Sequence record: MZ375256.1
Origin: Escherichia phage T7
Strand: one strand, 5' to 3'
Length of the DNA stretch: 37,111 nt
Made by a program: the position numbers and the translations under genes. Below, one piece after another: positions 1-37,111 of this stretch (position 1 is its first letter; every line of letters begins with the position of its first letter). Below the pieces are notes generated by a model. The model was not told the origin of the DNA. It worked only from the letters and a program-made list of their open reading frames with translations, and did no database searches.

Positions 1-140
1 TCTCACAGTGTACGGACCTAAAGTTCCCCATAGGGGTACCTAAAGCCCAGCCAATCACCTAAAGTCAACCTTCGGTTGACCTTGAGGGTTCCCTAAGGGT
101 TTGTCTTTGGGTGTTACCTTGAGTGTCTCTCTGTGTCCCT
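1..140. repeat. Left direct terminal repeat (identical copy at 36972-37111)
   Basis: First 140 nt are repeated exactly at the last 140 nt of the window; T7-type terminal redundancy. Confidence 0.95.
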
Positions 141-154
141 ACCTGTAACAGTCT

Positions 155-318
155 CCTAAAGTATCCTCCTAAAGTCACCTCCTAACGTCCATCCTAAAGC
201 CAACACCTAAAGCCAACACCTAAAGACCCATCAAGTCAACGCCTATCTTAAAGTTTAAACATAAAGACCAGACCTAAAGACCAGACCTAAAGACACTACA
301 TAAAGACCAGACCTAAAG
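155..318. repeat. Array of short CCTAAAG-type repeats adjacent to the left terminal repeat
   Basis: Multiple spaced copies of cctaaag / acctaaag / ataaag visible between 155 and 318. Confidence 0.8.
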
Positions 319-367: not shown

Positions 368-390
368 TAATACAACTCACTATAGGGAGA
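368..390 (+). promoter_or_regulatory. T7 RNAP promoter phiOL
   Basis: taatacaactcactatagggaga, one mismatch to the 23-bp T7 consensus. Confidence 0.8.
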
Positions 391-2587: not shown

Positions 2588-5239
2588 ATGAACACGATTA
2601 ACATCGCTAAGAACGACTTCTCTGACATCGAACTGGCTGCTATCCCGTTCAACACTCTGGCTGACCATTACGGTGAGCGTTTAGCTCGCGAACAGTTGGC
2701 CCTTGAGCATGAGTCTTACGAGATGGGTGAAGCACGCTTCCGCAAGATGTTTGAGCGTCAACTTAAAGCTGGTGAGGTTGCGGATAACGCTGCCGCCAAG
2801 CCTCTCATCACTACCCTACTCCCTAAGATGATTGCACGCATCAACGACTGGTTTGAGGAAGTGAAAGCTAAGCGCGGCAAGCGCCCGACAGCCTTCCAGT
2901 TCCTGCAAGAAATCAAGCCGGAAGCCGTAGCGTACATCACCATTAAGACCACTCTGGCTTGCCTAACCAGTGCTGACAATACAACCGTTCAGGCTGTAGC
3001 AAGCGCAATCGGTCGGGCCATTGAGGACGAGGCTCGCTTCGGTCGTATCCGTGACCTTGAAGCTAAGCACTTCAAGAAAAACGTTGAGGAACAACTCAAC
3101 AAGCGCGTAGGGCACGTCTACAAGAAAGCATTTATGCGAGTTGTCGAGGCTGACATGCTCTCTAAGGGTCTACTCGGTGGCGAGGCGTGGTCTTCGTGGC
3201 ATAAGGAAGACTCTATTCATGTAGGAGTACGCTGCATCGAGATGCTCATTGAGTCAACCGGAATGGTTAGCTTACACCGCCAAAATGCTGGCGTAGTAGG
3301 TCAAGACTCTGAGACTATCGAACTCGCACCTGAATACGCTGAGGCTATCGCAACCCGTGCAGGTGCGCTGGCTGGCATCTCTCCGATGTTCCAACCTTGC
3401 GTAGTTCCTCCTAAGCCGTGGACTGGCATTACTGGTGGTGGCTATTGGGCTAACGGTCGTCGTCCTCTGGCGCTGGTGCGTACTCACAGTAAGAAAGCAC
3501 TGATGCGCTACGAAGACGTTTACATGCCTGAGGTGTACAAAGCGATTAACATTGCGCAAAACACCGCATGGAAAATCAACAAGAAAGTCCTAGCGGTCGC
3601 CAACGTAATCACCAAGTGGAAGCATTGTCCGGTCGAGGACATCCCTGCGATTGAGCGTGAAGAACTCCCGATGAAACCGGAAGACATCGACATGAATCCT
3701 GAGGCTCTCACCGCGTGGAAACGTGCTGCCGCTGCTGTGTACCGCAAGGACAAGGCTCGCAAGTCTCGCCGTATCAGCCTTGAGTTCATGCTTGAGCAAG
3801 CCAATAAGTTTGCTAACCATAAGGCCATCTGGTTCCCTTACAACATGGACTGGCGCGGTCGTGTTTACGCTGTGTCAATGTTCAACCCGCAAGGTAACGA
3901 TATGACCAAAGGACTGCTTACGCTGGCGAAAGGTAAACCAATCGGTAAGGAAGGTTACTACTGGCTGAAAATCCACGGTGCAAACTGTGCGGGTGTCGAT
4001 AAGGTTCCGTTCCCTGAGCGCATCAAGTTCATTGAGGAAAACCACGAGAACATCATGGCTTGCGCTAAGTCTCCACTGGAGAACACTTGGTGGGCTGAGC
4101 AAGATTCTCCGTTCTGCTTCCTTGCGTTCTGCTTTGAGTACGCTGGGGTACAGCACCACGGCCTGAGCTATAACTGCTCCCTTCCGCTGGCGTTTGACGG
4201 GTCTTGCTCTGGCATCCAGCACTTCTCCGCGATGCTCCGAGATGAGGTAGGTGGTCGCGCGGTTAACTTGCTTCCTAGTGAAACCGTTCAGGACATCTAC
4301 GGGATTGTTGCTAAGAAAGTCAACGAGATTCTACAAGCAGACGCAATCAATGGGACCGATAACGAAGTAGTTACCGTGACCGATGAGAACACTGGTGAAA
4401 TCTCTGAGAAAGTCAAGCTGGGCACTAAGGCACTGGCTGGTCAATGGCTGGCTTACGGTGTTACTCGCAGTGTGACTAAGCGTTCAGTCATGACGCTGGC
4501 TTACGGGTCCAAAGAGTTCGGCTTCCGTCAACAAGTGCTGGAAGATACCATTCAGCCAGCTATTGATTCCGGCAAGGGTCTGATGTTCACTCAGCCGAAT
4601 CAGGCTGCTGGATACATGGCTAAGCTGATTTGGGAATCTGTGAGCGTGACGGTGGTAGCTGCGGTTGAAGCAATGAACTGGCTTAAGTCTGCTGCTAAGC
4701 TGCTGGCTGCTGAGGTCAAAGATAAGAAGACTGGAGAGATTCTTCGCAAGCGTTGCGCTGTGCATTGGGTAACTCCTGATGGTTTCCCTGTGTGGCAGGA
4801 ATACAAGAAGCCTATTCAGACGCGCTTGAACCTGATGTTCCTCGGTCAGTTCCGCTTACAGCCTACCATTAACACCAACAAAGATAGCGAGATTGATGCA
4901 CACAAACAGGAGTCTGGTATCGCTCCTAACTTTGTACACAGCCAAGACGGTAGCCACCTTCGTAAGACTGTAGTGTGGGCACACGAGAAGTACGGAATCG
5001 AATCTTTTGCACTGATTCACGACTCCTTCGGTACCATTCCGGCTGACGCTGCGAACCTGTTCAAAGCAGTGCGCGAAACTATGGTTGACACATATGAGTC
5101 TTGTGATGTACTGGCTGATTTCTACGACCAGTTCGCTGACCAGTTGCACGAGTCTCAATTGGACAAAATGCCAGCACTTCCGGCTAAAGGTAACTTGAAC
5201 CTCCGTGACATCTTAGAGTCGGACTTCGCGTTCGCGTAA
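2588..5239 (+). CDS. 1: T7 DNA-directed RNA polymerase
   Basis: 883-aa ORF, recognisable as single-subunit T7 RNAP (starts MNTINIAKNDFSDIELAAIPFNTLADHYGERLAREQLALEHESYEMGEARFRKMFERQLK...). Confidence 0.98.
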   Translation: MNTINIAKNDFSDIELAAIPFNTLADHYGERLAREQLALEHESYEMGEARFRKMFERQLKAGEVADNAAAKPLITTLLPKMIARINDWFEEVKAKRGKRPTAFQFLQEIKPEAVAYITIKTTLACLTSADNTTVQAVASAIGRAIEDEARFGRIRDLEAKHFKKNVEEQLNKRVGHVYKKAFMRVVEADMLSKGLLGGEAWSSWHKEDSIHVGVRCIEMLIESTGMVSLHRQNAGVVGQDSETIELAPEYAEAIATRAGALAGISPMFQPCVVPPKPWTGITGGGYWANGRRPLALVRTHSKKALMRYEDVYMPEVYKAINIAQNTAWKINKKVLAVANVITKWKHCPVEDIPAIEREELPMKPEDIDMNPEALTAWKRAAAAVYRKDKARKSRRISLEFMLEQANKFANHKAIWFPYNMDWRGRVYAVSMFNPQGNDMTKGLLTLAKGKPIGKEGYYWLKIHGANCAGVDKVPFPERIKFIEENHENIMACAKSPLENTWWAEQDSPFCFLAFCFEYAGVQHHGLSYNCSLPLAFDGSCSGIQHFSAMLRDEVGGRAVNLLPSETVQDIYGIVAKKVNEILQADAINGTDNEVVTVTDENTGEISEKVKLGTKALAGQWLAYGVTRSVTKRSVMTLAYGSKEFGFRQQVLEDTIQPAIDSGKGLMFTQPNQAAGYMAKLIWESVSVTVVAAVEAMNWLKSAAKLLAAEVKDKKTGEILRKRCAVHWVTPDGFPVWQEYKKPIQTRLNLMFLGQFRLQPTINTNKDSEIDAHKQESGIAPNFVHSQDGSHLRKTVVWAHEKYGIESFALIHDSFGTIPADAANLFKAVRETMVDTYESCDVLADFYDQFADQLHESQLDKMPALPAKGNLNLRDILESDFAFA

Positions 5240-7427: not shown

Positions 7428-8009
7428 TGGGACTGTTAGATGGTGAAGCCTGGGAAAAAGAAAACCCGCCAGTACAAGCAACTGGGTGTATAGCTTGCTT
7501 AGAGAAAGATGACCGTTATCCACACACCTGTAACAAAGGAGCTAACGATATGACCGAACGTGAACAAGAGATGATCATTAAGTTGATAGACAATAATGAA
7601 GGTCGCCCAGATGATTTGAATGGCTGCGGTATTCTCTGCTCCAATGTCCCTTGCCACCTCTGCCCCGCAAATAACGATCAAAAGATAACCTTAGGTGAAA
7701 TCCGAGCGATGGACCCACGTAAACCACATCTGAATAAACCTGAGGTAACTCCTACAGATGACCAGCCTTCCGCTGAGACAATCGAAGGTGTCACTAAGCC
7801 TTCCCACTACATGCTGTTTGACGACATTGAGGCTATCGAAGTGATTGCTCGTTCAATGACCGTTGAGCAGTTCAAGGGATACTGCTTCGGTAACATCTTA
7901 AAGTACAGACTACGTGCTGGTAAGAAGTCAGAGTTAGCGTACTTAGAGAAAGACCTAGCGAAAGCAGACTTCTATAAAGAACTCTTTGAGAAACATAAGG
8001 ATAAATGTT

Positions 8010-9117: not shown

Positions 9118-9537
9118 GTGGAACTGCGGGAGAAAATCCTTGAGCGAATCAAGGTGACTTCCTCTGGGTGTTGGGAGTGGCAGGGCGCTACGAACAATAA
9201 AGGGTACGGGCAGGTGTGGTGCAGCAATACCGGAAAGGTTGTCTACTGTCATCGCGTAATGTCTAATGCTCCGAAAGGTTCTACCGTCCTGCACTCCTGT
9301 GATAATCCATTATGTTGTAACCCTGAACACCGTTCCATAGGAACTCCAAAAGAGAACTCCACTGACATGGTAAATAAGGGTCGCTCACACAAGGGGTATA
9401 AACTTTCAGACGAAGACGTAATGGCAATCATGGAGTCCAGCGAGTCCAATGTATCCTTAGCTCGCACCTATGGTGTCTCCCAACAGACTATTTGTGATAT
9501 ACGCAAAGGGAGGCGACATGGCAGGTTACGGCGCTAA
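9118..9537 (+). CDS. 2.8: HNH endonuclease-family protein
   Basis: 139-aa ORF with GTG start; Cys/His motif CHRVMSN...HSCDNPLCCNPEH; clear paralog of the 17460-17852 ORF. Confidence 0.85.
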   Translation: MELREKILERIKVTSSGCWEWQGATNNKGYGQVWCSNTGKVVYCHRVMSNAPKGSTVLHSCDNPLCCNPEHRSIGTPKENSTDMVNKGRSHKGYKLSDEDVMAIMESSESNVSLARTYGVSQQTICDIRKGRRHGRLRR

Positions 9538-9967: not shown

Positions 9968-10422
9968 TGGCTCGTGTACAGTTTAAACAACGTGAATCTA
10001 CTGACGCAATCTTTGTTCACTGCTCGGCTACCAAGCCAAGTCAGAATGTTGGTGTCCGTGAGATTCGCCAGTGGCACAAAGAGCAGGGTTGGCTCGATGT
10101 GGGATACCACTTTATCATCAAGCGAGACGGTACTGTGGAGGCAGGACGAGATGAGATGGCTGTAGGCTCTCACGCTAAGGGTTACAACCACAACTCTATC
10201 GGCGTCTGCCTTGTTGGTGGTATCGACGATAAAGGTAAGTTCGACGCTAACTTTACGCCAGCCCAAATGCAATCCCTTCGCTCACTGCTTGTCACACTGC
10301 TGGCTAAGTACGAAGGCGCTGTGCTTCGCGCCCATCATGAGGTGGCGCCGAAGGCTTGCCCTTCGTTCGACCTTAAGCGTTGGTGGGAGAAGAACGAACT
10401 GGTCACTTCTGACCGTGGATAA
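9967..10422 (+). CDS. 3.5: Lysozyme (N-acetylmuramoyl-L-alanine amidase) and RNAP inhibitor
   Basis: 151-aa ORF. Confidence 0.95.
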   Translation: MARVQFKQRESTDAIFVHCSATKPSQNVGVREIRQWHKEQGWLDVGYHFIIKRDGTVEAGRDEMAVGSHAKGYNHNSIGVCLVGGIDDKGKFDANFTPAQMQSLRSLLVTLLAKYEGAVLRAHHEVAPKACPSFDLKRWWEKNELVTSDRG

Positions 10423-12234
<1,812 letters not shown>

Positions 12235-12302
12235 CAGGATTCTTGACAGTTGTTTCATATGAAGAGATTGTTAAGTCACGATAATCAATAGGAGAAATCA
12301 AT

Positions 12303-14417
12303 ATGATCGTTTCTGACATCGAAGCTAACGCCCTCTTAGAGAGCGTCACTAAGTTCCACTGCGGGGTTATCTACGACTACTCCACCGCTGAGTACGTAAG
12401 CTACCGTCCGAGTGACTTCGGTGCGTATCTGGATGCGCTGGAAGCCGAGGTTGCACGAGGCGGTCTTATTGTGTTCCACAACGGTCACAAGTATGACGTT
12501 CCTGCATTGACCAAACTGGCAAAGTTGCAATTGAACCGAGAGTTCCACCTTCCTCGTGAGAACTGTATTGACACCCTTGTGTTGTCACGTTTGATTCATT
12601 TCAACCTCAAGGACACCGATATGGGTCTTCTGCGTTCCGGCAAGTTGCCCGGAAAACGCTTTGGGTCTCACGCTTTGGAGGCGTGGGGTTATCGCTTAGG
12701 CGAGATGAAGGGTGAATACAAAGACGACTTTAAGCGTATGCTTGAAGAGCAGGGTGAAGAATACGTTGACGGAATGGAGTGGTGGAACTTCAACGAAGAG
12801 ATGATGGACTATAACGTTCAGGACGTTGTGGTAACTAAAGCTCTCCTTGAGAAGCTACTCTCTGACAAACATTACTTCCCTCCTGAGATTGACTTTACGG
12901 ACGTAGGATACACTACGTTCTGGTCAGAATCCCTTGAGGCCGTTGACATTGAACATCGTGCTGCATGGCTGCTCGCTAAACAAGAGCGCAACGGGTTCCC
13001 GTTTGACACAAAAGCAATCGAAGAGTTGTACGTAGAGTTAGCTGCTCGCCGCTCTGAGTTGCTCCGTAAATTGACCGAAACGTTCGGCTCGTGGTATCAG
13101 CCTAAAGGTGGCACTGAGATGTTCTGCCATCCGCGAACAGGTAAGCCACTACCTAAATACCCTCGCATTAAGACACCTAAAGTTGGTGGTATCTTTAAGA
13201 AGCCTAAGAACAAGGCACAGCGAGAAGGCCGTGAGCCTTGCGAACTTGATACCCGCGAGTACGTTGCTGGTGCTCCTTACACCCCAGTTGAACATGTTGT
13301 GTTTAACCCTTCGTCTCGTGACCACATTCAGAAGAAACTCCAAGAGGCTGGGTGGGTCCCGACCAAGTACACCGATAAGGGTGCTCCTGTGGTGGACGAT
13401 GAGGTACTCGAAGGAGTACGTGTAGATGACCCTGAGAAGCAAGCCGCTATCGACCTCATTAAAGAGTACTTGATGATTCAGAAGCGAATCGGACAGTCTG
13501 CTGAGGGAGACACAGCATGGCTTCGTTATGTTGCTGAGGATGGTAAGATTCATGGTTCTGTTAACCCTAATGGAGCAGTTACGGGTCGTGCGACCCATGC
13601 GTTCCCAAACCTTGCGCAAATTCCGGGTGTACGTTCTCCTTATGGAGAGCAGTGTCGCGCTGCTTTTGGCGCTGAGCACCATTTGGATGGGATAACTGGT
13701 AAGCCTTGGGTTCAGGCTGGCATCGACGCATCCGGTCTTGAGCTACGCTGCTTGGCTCACTTCATGGCTCGCTTTGATAACGGCGAGTACGCTCACGAGA
13801 TTCTTAACGGCGACATCCACACTAAGAACCAGATAGCTGCTGAACTACCTACCCGAGATAACGCTAAGACGTTCATCTATGGGTTCCTCTATGGTGCTGG
13901 TGATGAGAAGATTGGACAGATTGTTGGTGCTGGTAAAGAGCGCGGTAAGGAACTCAAGAAGAAATTCCTTGAGAACACCCCCGCGATTGCAGCACTCCGC
14001 GAGTCTATCCAACAGACACTTGTCGAGTCCTCTCAATGGGTAGCTGGTGAGCAACAAGTCAAGTGGAAACGCCGCTGGATTAAAGGTCTGGATGGTCGTA
14101 AGGTACACGTTCGTAGTCCTCACGCTGCCTTGAATACCCTACTGCAATCTGCTGGTGCTCTCATCTGCAAACTGTGGATTATCAAGACCGAAGAGATGCT
14201 CGTAGAGAAAGGCTTGAAGCATGGCTGGGATGGGGACTTTGCGTACATGGCATGGGTACATGATGAAATCCAAGTAGGCTGCCGTACCGAAGAGATTGCT
14301 CAGGTGGTCATTGAGACCGCACAAGAAGCGATGCGCTGGGTTGGAGACCACTGGAACTTCCGGTGTCTTCTGGATACCGAAGGTAAGATGGGTCCTAATT
14401 GGGCGATTTGCCACTGA
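12303..14417 (+). CDS. 5: DNA polymerase
   Basis: 704-aa ORF, family A polymerase with 3'-5' exonuclease domain. Confidence 0.98.
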
Positions 14418-16475: not shown

Positions 16476-16742
16476 ATGTGTTTCTCACCGAAAATTAAAA
16501 CTCCGAAGATGGATACCAATCAGATTCGAGCCGTTGAGCCAGCGCCTCTGACCCAAGAAGTGTCAAGCGTGGAGTTCGGTGGGTCTTCTGATGAGACGGA
16601 TACCGAGGGCACCGAAGTGTCTGGACGCAAAGGCCTCAAGGTCGAACGTGATGATTCCGTAGCGAAGTCTAAAGCCAGCGGCAATGGCTCCGCTCGTATG
16701 AAATCTTCCATCCGTAAGTCCGCATTTGGAGGTAAGAAGTGA
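16476..16742 (+). CDS. 6.7: Gp6.7 virion protein
   Basis: 88-aa ORF from MCFSPKIKTPK. Confidence 0.85.
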   Translation: MCFSPKIKTPKMDTNQIRAVEPAPLTQEVSSVEFGGSSDETDTEGTEVSGRKGLKVERDDSVAKSKASGNGSARMKSSIRKSAFGGKK

Positions 16743-17143
16743 TGTCTGAGTTCACATGTGTGGAGGCTAAGAGTCGCTTCCGTGCAATCCGGTGGACTGT
16801 GGAACACCTTGGGTTGCCTAAAGGATTCGAAGGACACTTTGTGGGCTACAGCCTCTACGTAGACGAAGTGATGGACATGTCTGGTTGCCGTGAAGAGTAC
16901 ATTCTGGACTCTACCGGAAAACATGTAGCGTACTTCGCGTGGTGCGTAAGCTGTGACATTCACCACAAAGGAGACATTCTGGATGTAACGTCCGTTGTCA
17001 TTAATCCTGAGGCAGACTCTAAGGGCTTACAGCGATTCCTAGCGAAACGCTTTAAGTACCTTGCGGAACTCCACGATTGCGATTGGGTGTCTCGTTGTAA
17101 GCATGAAGGCGAGACAATGCGTGTATACTTTAAGGAGGTATAA
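16742..17143 (+). CDS. 7: Gp7 virion/host-range protein
   Basis: 133-aa ORF. Confidence 0.85.
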   Translation: MSEFTCVEAKSRFRAIRWTVEHLGLPKGFEGHFVGYSLYVDEVMDMSGCREEYILDSTGKHVAYFAWCVSCDIHHKGDILDVTSVVINPEADSKGLQRFLAKRFKYLAELHDCDWVSRCKHEGETMRVYFKEV

Positions 17144-36594: not shown

Positions 36595-36617
36595 TAATAC
36601 GACTCACTATAGGGAGA
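36595..36617 (+). promoter_or_regulatory. T7 promoter phiOR (class III consensus)
   Basis: taatacgactcactatagggaga. Confidence 0.9.
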
Positions 36618-36905: not shown

Positions 36906-36971
36906 CTTAGAGAGGGCCTATGGAGTTCCTATAGGGTCCTTTAAAATATACCATAAAAATCTGAGTGACTA

Positions 36972-37111
36972 TCTCACAGTGTACGGACCTAAAGTTCCCC
37001 ATAGGGGTACCTAAAGCCCAGCCAATCACCTAAAGTCAACCTTCGGTTGACCTTGAGGGTTCCCTAAGGGTTTGTCTTTGGGTGTTACCTTGAGTGTCTC
37101 TCTGTGTCCCT
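36972..37111. repeat. Right direct terminal repeat (identical to 1-140)
   Basis: Exact 140-nt match to the window start. Confidence 0.95.

Follow-up and report, generated by a model that had tools for sequence, protein, structure and literature searches.

Sequence at the concatemer junction

The DNA analysed here, referred to as the window, is the whole 37,111-nt sequence record MZ375256.1 of Escherichia phage T7. Features of its left end, of the terminal repeats (TR) that form the concatemer junction (CJ) and of the RNA polymerase gene are collected in Table 1. Immediately after the left TR, positions 141-156 read acctgtaacagtctcc, and the first seven of these bases, on the + strand, are ACCTGTA where wild-type T7 has ATCTGTT. 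In the alignment with the reference V01146, reference positions 161-171 read ATCTGTTACAG and window positions 141-151 read ACCTGTAACAG, each preceded by CCCT. Just two bases differ between the heptamers, through T162C (window 142) and T167A (window 147), and no further substitution lies within 60 nt on either side. An earlier note, made from the letters of the window, had given ATCTGTT as the canonical sequence of this spot directly after the left TR and had taken two of its seven bases to be altered; the alignment bears out the canonical sequence, the placement (TR at 1-140, heptamer from 141) and the count. Chance resemblance of ACCTGTA to a T7 signal is excluded, since the site lies at the homologous position in a genome more than 99.8% identical to T7 outside the deletions.

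The surroundings of the site are those of the T7-group junction, with identical direct repeats, the site at the first unique base, and co-orientation with the + strand downstream of the promoter phiOR. phiOR is presumably the last promoter upstream of the junction and the source of the polymerase that reaches the site on concatemers. Locus and orientation are the same as for the CJ class II signal of T7 (Lyakhov et al. 1997/98, He et al. 1998, Zhang & Studier 2004), and the window and wild type are alike in that the heptamer forms the first seven bases after the TR, follows a T, lies downstream of phiOR and has no U-run. The window departs from the canonical signal at two of seven positions, one of which is invariant, so that it carries a derived and probably non-functional allele.

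Table 1. Features of the window that bear on the concatemer junction (window coordinates; substitutions are named by their V01146 positions)
Feature	Position	Strand	Remarks
Left TR, 140 nt (160 nt in wild type)	1..140	+	Identical to 36972-37111; delC30, delG34 and an 18-bp deletion of reference 99-116
Scar of the 18-bp TR deletion	95..101	+	Hairpin and U-tract lost (reference 94-119 plus TTTGTCTTTG), ~45 nt upstream of the heptamer
Mutated CJ class II heptamer	141..147	+	Homologous to the 'concatemeric junction' annotated in phage 13a
T162C, heptamer base 2	142..142	+	Invariant in natural relatives; earliest allele of the lineage (T7_20S)
T167A, heptamer base 7	147..147	+	Natural T/A polymorphism; also the -12 T of a cryptic sigma70 TGnTA promoter
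T235A, -11 A of the leftward E. coli promoter A0	215..215	-	TTGACT-17-TAGGCT, +1 at reference 224
phiOL T7 promoter, +1 A>G (A405G, window 385)	368..390	+	Moves toward consensus
Q184R, gene 1 (T7 RNA polymerase, window 2588-5239)	codon 3137..3139	+	4-5 residues past K179/K180, in the region of the 172-180 loop
phiOR T7 promoter TAATACGACTCACTATAGGGAGA	36595..36617	+	Corresponds to V01146 phiOR at 39229
Right TR	36972..37111	+	Abuts window 141 in the concatemer, forming the concatemer junction

Origin of the window in an evolution experiment

The window is a plaque-purified clone of a laboratory-evolved, genome-reduced T7 line and not a natural strain variant. Its nearest relatives are MZ375259 (clone T7_140L), MZ375261 and other T7_nnnL/S records, at 99.9-100% identity over 25 kb. 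The sister records (MZ375233-294 and OL964739-41) are entitled 'Mutant Escherichia phage T7 clone T7_nnnL/S', where the number is the transfer and L or S denotes a large or small plaque. Relative to V01146 the window has seven deletions (1353-1903, 7608-7763, 11254-11542, 13278-14272, 16483-16820, 37055-37280 and 39429-39608) and, beside these, about 30 substitutions.

The window and the sister records MZ375233-294 almost certainly derive from the CRISPR/Cas9 iterative genome reduction (CiPGr) of Yuan et al. 2022 (Nucleic Acids Res 50:13183, PMC9825161). The host for the serial passages was E. coli MG1655 equipped with Cas9, lambda Red and a spacer library, designed for each non-essential gene and supplied with homology arms. 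Each transfer involved about 1e9 phage at a multiplicity of ~1 or more; 60 clones, sampled every 10 transfers to transfer 300, were sequenced, and ~60 T7 point mutations were reported genome-wide (PMC9825161). The published clone names, T7_300L among them, the sampling scheme and the number of clones fit the sister records. The main text of PMC9825161 mentions neither the junction nor intergenic changes nor T7 promoters. On a plain host, the best evolved T7 has a fitness below that of the wild type.

Natural variation of the heptamer

In the natural relatives T3, phiYeO3-12, phiA1122 and 13a, which span two genera, CCCT followed by ATCTGTTA stands right after the annotated terminal repeats, and the record of phage 13a labels the spot 'concatemeric junction'. 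A complete scan of IMG/VR with the pattern CTNTGTGTCCCT-NN-CTGT-N-A returned 35 stretches. Among 24 contigs of T7-like length (36-45 kb) the heptamer is ATCTGTT in 12 and ATCTGTA in the other 12. The single deviating contig of 36-45 kb (GCCTGTT) has its match in a coding-like, non-junction context, and the matches outside the 24 contigs lie in unrelated or coding-like contexts.

Across the four reference phages and the 24 contigs, bases 1-6 (ATCTGT) are thus invariant and base 7 is T or A. By this measure T162C is a disruptive change, as base 2 is invariant, and T167A a tolerated one, as base 7 is naturally T or A; the window departs from the natural pattern ATCTGT(T/A) through its C at base 2, its A at base 7 being inside the natural range. 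The consensus that Zhang and Studier are said to have given in 2004, (C/T)ATCTGT(T/A), agrees with the natural junctions found here. The 12 contigs with ATCTGTA (38-41 kb) resemble the window in having A at base 7 after a repeat that ends in ...TGTGTCCCT. In these phages, however, ATCTGT is intact, without the window's C at base 2, and the polymerases are their own.

Expected effect on pausing and packaging

To our knowledge, the only natural signals that halt T7 RNA polymerase are T-phi and the junction pause site. Recruitment of terminase by the paused polymerase has been the centrepiece of the T7 maturation model for more than 20 years, most of the evidence for it coming from mutants of polymerase and lysozyme and from plasmid-packaging assays. 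The junction copy has no downstream U-run and works as a pause. The polymerase-lysozyme complex paused at the junction is proposed to contact gp18/gp19 and so to start maturation and packaging (PMC3276506, citing Zhang & Studier). Class II signals are described in bioRxiv 10.1101/2021.01.11.426313 and 10.64898/2026.02.12.705533, which cite He 1998 and Lyakhov 1997/98, as having a strictly conserved ATCTGTT in which any base change abolishes termination. The latter preprint, in its account of He et al. 1998, adds that the heptamer must follow A, C or T. In vitro, a class II signal makes the polymerase pause or terminate 6-8 nt further downstream, an effect that T7 lysozyme enhances. At the window junction the preceding base, position 140, is T. 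The heptamer itself departs from the class II definition (ATCTGTT on the non-template strand) by mismatches at bases 2 and 7. Given the published strict conservation of ATCTGTT, ACCTGTA should go unrecognised, and T162C should abolish sequence-specific pausing.

A comparable phenotype can be predicted from the polymerase side. Class II recognition is lost in T7 RNA polymerase with del172-173 or R173C or with a nick at 178/179 (bioRxiv 10.1101/2021.01.11.426313). Such mutants, like the window, would be expected not to pause at the junction. Lyakhov is said to have reported in 1997 that they are defective for phage growth, whereas the cis-site mutants of the present lineage are viable over hundreds of transfers.

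A second ATCTGTT able to stand in for the altered one, a possibility that the earlier note had raised, is missing from the transcribed (+) strand of the window, all 4 further matches being on the minus strand. Nor does ATCTGT(T/A) occur anywhere on the sense strand of the whole window. Wild-type T7 has sense-strand ATCTGT(T/A) at the junction only, and eight antisense copies. As there is no replacement on the transcribed strand, the clones mature and package their DNA without the canonical pause signal. Plaque-purified clones are viable without the canonical heptamer, and T7 is evidently able to package DNA without this site. Compensation by the proteins concerned is not needed for T162C, since clone T7_20S carries this change without any amino-acid change in RNA polymerase, gp18 or gp19.

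A new or substitute pause signal near the junction was also considered and was rejected, there being no near-match 7-mer between phiOR and phiOL: on the sense strand of this interval no 7-mer other than the mutated site lies within one mismatch of ATCTGT(T/A).

Alleles of the heptamer among sister clones

The census of heptamer alleles covers about 58 sister records and combines a comparison of the left ends of 17 genomes with allele-specific searches of the phage collection (Table 2). The lineage holds at least four distinct changes of the heptamer (T162C, A161C, T167A and a 1-bp insertion), T162C appearing by transfer 20 and A161C by transfer 40. Past transfer 20 no sampled clone has the wild-type ATCTGTT. 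The window's ACCTGTA recurs in the sister clones MZ375248, MZ375250 and MZ375258, each sequenced independently; most sisters carry other changes of the same heptamer (ACCTGTT, CTCTGTT, ACTCTGTT). No heptamer change occurs in the other laboratory T7 genomes listed (PP3843xx, LR7457xx, MZ3183xx, PV2238xx, AY264774 and T7.1). The heptamer is a recurrent mutational target of the lineage, and this is more than one odd strain. The earlier reading stands in its sequence-level claims, and its expectation of reduced or abolished pausing is in line with the literature; to be added are the origin of the window in a laboratory-evolved line, the unequal weight of the two changes and the repeated mutation of the heptamer in that line.

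Table 2. Heptamer alleles in the evolved lineage
Sequence	Change	Records
ATCTGTT	Wild type	T7_10L, 10S and 20L only
ACCTGTT	T162C	16 records, 20S to 170L, plus OL964739 and OL964740; also 260S with an extra T148C
CTCTGTT	A161C	33 records, 40S through 300; nearly all clones past transfer 180
ACCTGTA	T162C + T167A	80S, 90S, 130S and the window
ATCTGTA	T167A alone	100S
ACTCTGTT	1-bp insertion	280L

All clones come from one evolving population, and alleles that count as independent share a history. Recombination instead of new mutation may account for some of the combinations, for example ATCTGTA in T7_100S.

The concentration of changes bears on whether they could be neutral. If the pause signal were simply dispensable in rich medium, heptamer changes could hitch-hike with beneficial deletions, helped by a mutational hot spot at the border where terminase cuts and the TR is duplicated. 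T162C is indeed first seen together with the first large deletion, in T7_20S, and early linkage is tight, T7_20L and T7_20S differing at four nucleotides genome-wide. The TR and its border also show many other changes, including homopolymer indels, which suggests a local excess of mutation or assembly noise. Four events in 7 bp, however, have a Poisson probability of ~5e-10 against the ~60 point mutations genome-wide, and at least four distinct changes remain very improbable at the elevated rate of the left end (P ~4e-5, against ~25 events in its 924 non-coding nt). At the population sizes and multiplicities of the passages, T7 recombination should moreover uncouple hitch-hikers, and the wild type is absent from the sampled clones past transfer 20. 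A neutral origin of this kind is therefore unlikely.

An artefact of sequencing or assembly at the genome end is scarcely credible. Genome ends are hard to assemble, and TR homopolymer lengths vary erratically among clones. The heptamer, by contrast, belongs to the unique sequence that directly follows the repeat, and its alleles turn up again in dozens of clones, each sequenced separately, in a coherent order over time and in association with plaque type.

Possible escape from Cas9

The most serious rival explanation is that the junction changes are seed mutations that block cleavage by Cas9, loss of the pause being a side effect. Only two protospacers overlap the heptamer, both on the minus strand, at reference 161-180 (PAM AGG) and 160-179 (PAM GGG), and the mutated bases 161, 162 and 167 fall at seed positions 1, 2 and 7 of one or 2, 3 and 8 of the other, in agreement with the PAM and seed requirements of SpCas9. 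In the experiment as published, 23.5% of the T7 point mutations lie in spacer or PAM regions (PMC9825161). Among the laboratory T7 records listed, CJ changes are confined to this Cas9-based experiment, and several alleles, rapid fixation and a double mutant make up a typical escape pattern. The spacers of interest for escape at the junction are TTTAGGAGACTGTAACAGAT or TTAGGAGACTGTAACAGATA.

The design of the library speaks against this, for its spacers were made per predicted gene, and the authors' own records begin their gene numbering with gene 0.3, which starts at 925, and have no annotation before it. A guide directed elsewhere in T7 and acting off target is argued against by the absence of any other T7 protospacer within 6 mismatches: even the nearest differs at 7 or more positions, with 2 or more of the differences in the seed, which far exceeds what SpCas9 tolerates. 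No clone has a mutation of the PAM (CC at 157-159), and the neighbouring fixed change A405G cannot be an escape mutation. For the other left-end mutations the PAM and seed test does not discriminate, CCN being dense on that strand; A405G is the exception. On balance there is a small chance that Cas9 escape accounts for the junction alleles.

Transcription signals around the junction

The heptamer is one of several transcription signals altered at the left end. The 18-bp deletion in the TR, fixed from about transfer 80, removes a hairpin that is also flagged by a promoter and terminator scan; the predicted RNA fold weakens from -15.6 to -17.1 kcal/mol in the wild type to -3.9 kcal/mol in the window. 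Besides T235A, the leftward promoter A0 has further alleles in the lineage, T235C (-11) in T7_80S and A259C (-35) in T7_300L.2. In T7_100S, T7_170L and T7_5t1, phiOL also carries A394G (-11), which makes it an exact consensus promoter. Q184R in RNA polymerase appears by transfer 40 and is found in every later clone examined; a search found no literature on this substitution. The double-allele sisters T7_80S, T7_90S and T7_130S share with the window the TR deletion, T235A, phiOL A405G and Q184R.

The polymerase change allows for a co-evolutionary reading, in which Q184R shifts the pause preference, the junction is re-tuned to match and pausing is retained. Q184R lies close to the loop region 172-179, where alterations abolish class II recognition (bioRxiv 10.1101/2021.01.11.426313), and its presence in all later clones examined would suit such an adjustment. 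T162C is older than Q184R, though, and exists without it in T7_20S; Q184R, for its part, coexists with at least five junction sequences, unlike one half of a matched pair. Re-tuning is very improbable on these grounds.

The selected target could also be E. coli RNA polymerase, if a cryptic extended -10 (TGnTA) sigma70 promoter at the junction was being removed along with A0. CJ is described as a strong, context-dependent sigma70 promoter in which the -12 T is important (bioRxiv 10.64898/2026.02.12.705533). T167 is that -12 T, and T162 and A161 stand at -17 and -18, where T is preferred; A0 is mutated at -11 (two alleles) and at -35 within the same lineage. In the window the TG is kept (144-145) and -12 is A and not T (147), so TGnTA is no longer present, and T167A would disable this promoter activity as well. 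The earliest and dominant alleles, T162C and A161C, nevertheless spare both TG and TA and change positions that are not decisive in bioRxiv 10.64898/2026.02.12.705533 and are critical for class II. In its native T7 context the promoter activity of the CJ is putative, and the authors of that preprint themselves point out that transcripts from the region are not abundant. A consensus scan finds no sigma70 promoter at the junction in the wild type or the window, with a tool that ignores extended -10 promoters. Loss of a sigma70 promoter matches T167A but fails for the dominant base-1 and base-2 alleles, and as an explanation of the whole allele series it is quite improbable.

Taken with the heptamer, the neighbouring changes, which hit regulatory elements at key bases (loss of the TR hairpin, a knock-out of A0, an up-mutation of phiOL) and include Q184R, point to a broad remodelling of transcription signals at the left end, which suggests selection on transcription across the junction and the left end, with loss of the heptamer as one part. 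Selection other than by CRISPR acts on this region, because A405G lies only on a PAM 'N' and cannot be Cas9 escape. Any benefit would be specific to the regime (Cas9 and Red at high multiplicity), the best evolved T7 being less fit on the plain host.

Probable maturation without the pause signal

The explanation preferred here is that the CRISPR-reduced T7 lost its class II pause signal under selection and that DNA maturation continues without it; as a whole this account is rather probable, with both the loss of pausing and its selection argued from sequence and allele distribution. Under this explanation T7 RNA polymerase from phiOR would normally pause at ATCTGTT as it crosses the junction, and the paused complex, as proposed, would recruit terminase and prohead and start DNA maturation. 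With ACCTGTA, T162C would end sequence-specific pausing, while T167A would stay within the natural range and also remove the -12 T of the overlapping cryptic sigma70 promoter. Loss of the heptamer would be favoured under the passaging regime, as at least four separate changes and the disappearance of the wild type past transfer 20 suggest, and maturation and packaging would proceed without the canonical pause. With ACCTGTA the window has a genuine and derived knock-out allele of a familiar element, not a new kind of feature. What is new is the repeated destruction of the junction pause signal during this evolution, together with the viability of phage that have lost it.

A further-reaching reading, possible if on the doubtful side, is that the junction pause is dispensable for T7 packaging and costly under high-multiplicity passage with Cas9 and lambda Red. 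Obstacles to rightward transcription would then have been cleared in turn (the TR hairpin and U-tract, the heptamer and the opposing A0), while phiOL was strengthened and the polymerase altered beside its class II-recognition loop. A sharper version can be built on the direction of packaging, which according to Son and Serwer is reportedly from right to left. In that case the signal, though located at the left end of genome n+1, would trigger the cut that matures genome n, and its loss may be a 'selfish' cis-mutation favoured in co-infected cells. If the dispensable or the selfish version is true, the Zhang-Studier model of pause-triggered packaging needs revision.

The requirement for the pause in cis is directly testable with existing clones, among them the near-isogenic T7_20L and T7_20S. 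Work that engineers or minimises T7 should reckon with a non-coding left end whose elements (repeat, junction signal, A0 and phiOL) change fast under passaging, and gene-centred analysis misses change of this kind. The lineage supplies the cis-acting alleles ACCTGTT, CTCTGTT, ATCTGTA, ACCTGTA and ACTCTGTT in plaque-purified form, after up to 280 transfers. One of them, the ATCTGTA of T7_100S, lies within natural variation and is possibly a functional allele that was still around at transfer 100.

Junction allele and plaque type

At transfer 20 the large- and small-plaque clones of the line, T7_20L and T7_20S, differ genome-wide by just 4 nucleotides: the junction heptamer substitution T162C, one synonymous substitution within gene 1, and single-base changes in gp12 (T>G at reference 25964) and gp17 (A>G at reference 35095). 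Across transfers 20-170, clones carrying T162C only comprise 12 large and 2 small, while those with other junction alleles comprise 3 large and 11 small (Fisher p = 0.002). All four database clones that contain T167A, the second heptamer substitution in the window, are of the small-plaque type.

In the whole genome of wild-type T7 (V01146) the transcribed strand has a single copy of the class II motif ATCTGT(T/A), the one at the junction, while the antisense strand carries eight. Such an asymmetry fits with selection against stray pause signals within T7 transcription units. Because a similar motif lies at both boundaries of the terminal repeat (window 36965-36982 and 134-152), the heptamer may overlap a determinant of the terminase cut site in addition to the polymerase signal. 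The left boundary reads GACTA|TCTCACAG, and the right boundary in wild type reads CCCT|ATCTGTTACAG.

Terminal repeat

The wild-type terminal repeat contains a hairpin with a U-tract, reading CCTAAGGGTT-GGGG-ATGACCCTTGGG followed by TTTGTCTTTG; hairpin and U-tract together have a predicted RNA folding energy of approximately -16 kcal/mol. Both are gone from the window through an 18-bp deletion between GGGTT direct repeats, a deletion also present in every sister clone examined from transfer 80 on. The hairpin deletion has variant boundaries in 190S, 260S and 280L, and in T7_170L reference 70-80, which belongs to the CAACCTTCGGTTG hairpin, is missing as well. Elsewhere in the repeat, the palindrome CCCCCATAGGGGG (window 26-36) has become CCCCATAGGGG in both repeat copies, a symmetric change with one base gone from each arm, and sister clones carry other, asymmetric forms of it, namely CCCCCCATAGGGTG and CCCCCATAGTGGG. 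The palindrome shortening could be genuine or could instead reflect sequencing noise at homopolymers.

Features of the window and their coordinates
Feature	Window	Reference V01146	Detail
Scar of 18-bp terminal-repeat deletion	95-101	94-129 (hairpin plus U-tract)	
T235A in A0	215	235	leftward E. coli promoter; replaces -11 A
phiOL initiating base A -> G	385	405	toward consensus
Substitution/insertion clusters	1322-1327, 9332-9333, 12224-12239		
T7 RNA polymerase Q184R	3137-3139 (gene 1, 2588-5239)		context ...KRVGHVYKKAFMQVV...
DNA polymerase S100F, K404T	12601 and 13513 (gene 5)		
phi10 promoter +1 G -> T	20516	22904	TATAGGGAGA -> TATATGGAGA
gp19 (large terminase subunit) N31T	34844 (gene 19)		

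Promoter changes

The major capsid gene is transcribed from phi10, of all late promoters the strongest. The substitution at its initiating base should weaken phi10 and might be a cause of a small-plaque phenotype; it is not found in T7_140L, a clone that also lacks gp19 N31T and DNA polymerase K404T.

At the left end, A0 (TTGACT-17-TAGGCT, +1 at reference 224) is altered in several clones. The base changed in the window is also changed in T7_80S, there as T235C, and T7_300L.2 carries A259C within the -35 element. A0 is a target of repeated knock-out mutations in the lineage. In T7_100S, T7_170L and T7_5t1 an additional change, A394G, turns phiOL into the exact class III consensus TAATACGACTCACTATAGGGAGA. 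The phiOL initiating-base change is not obligatory, since T7_5t3 retains the wild-type promoter.

Coding changes and mutation clusters

The RNA polymerase substitution Q184R lies directly past the K172/R173 and K179/K180 loop, is seen earliest in T7_40S and is kept onward. Later clones also carry V137A, R96C and E245G in this polymerase, all of them in the N-terminal promoter-binding domain. A literature search for Q184R of T7 RNA polymerase found nothing.

Substitutions and small insertions are tightly clustered along the borders of deletions and also within gene 2.8 (reference 10071-10072), and these clusters resemble scars left by Cas9 escape or by repair during genome reduction.
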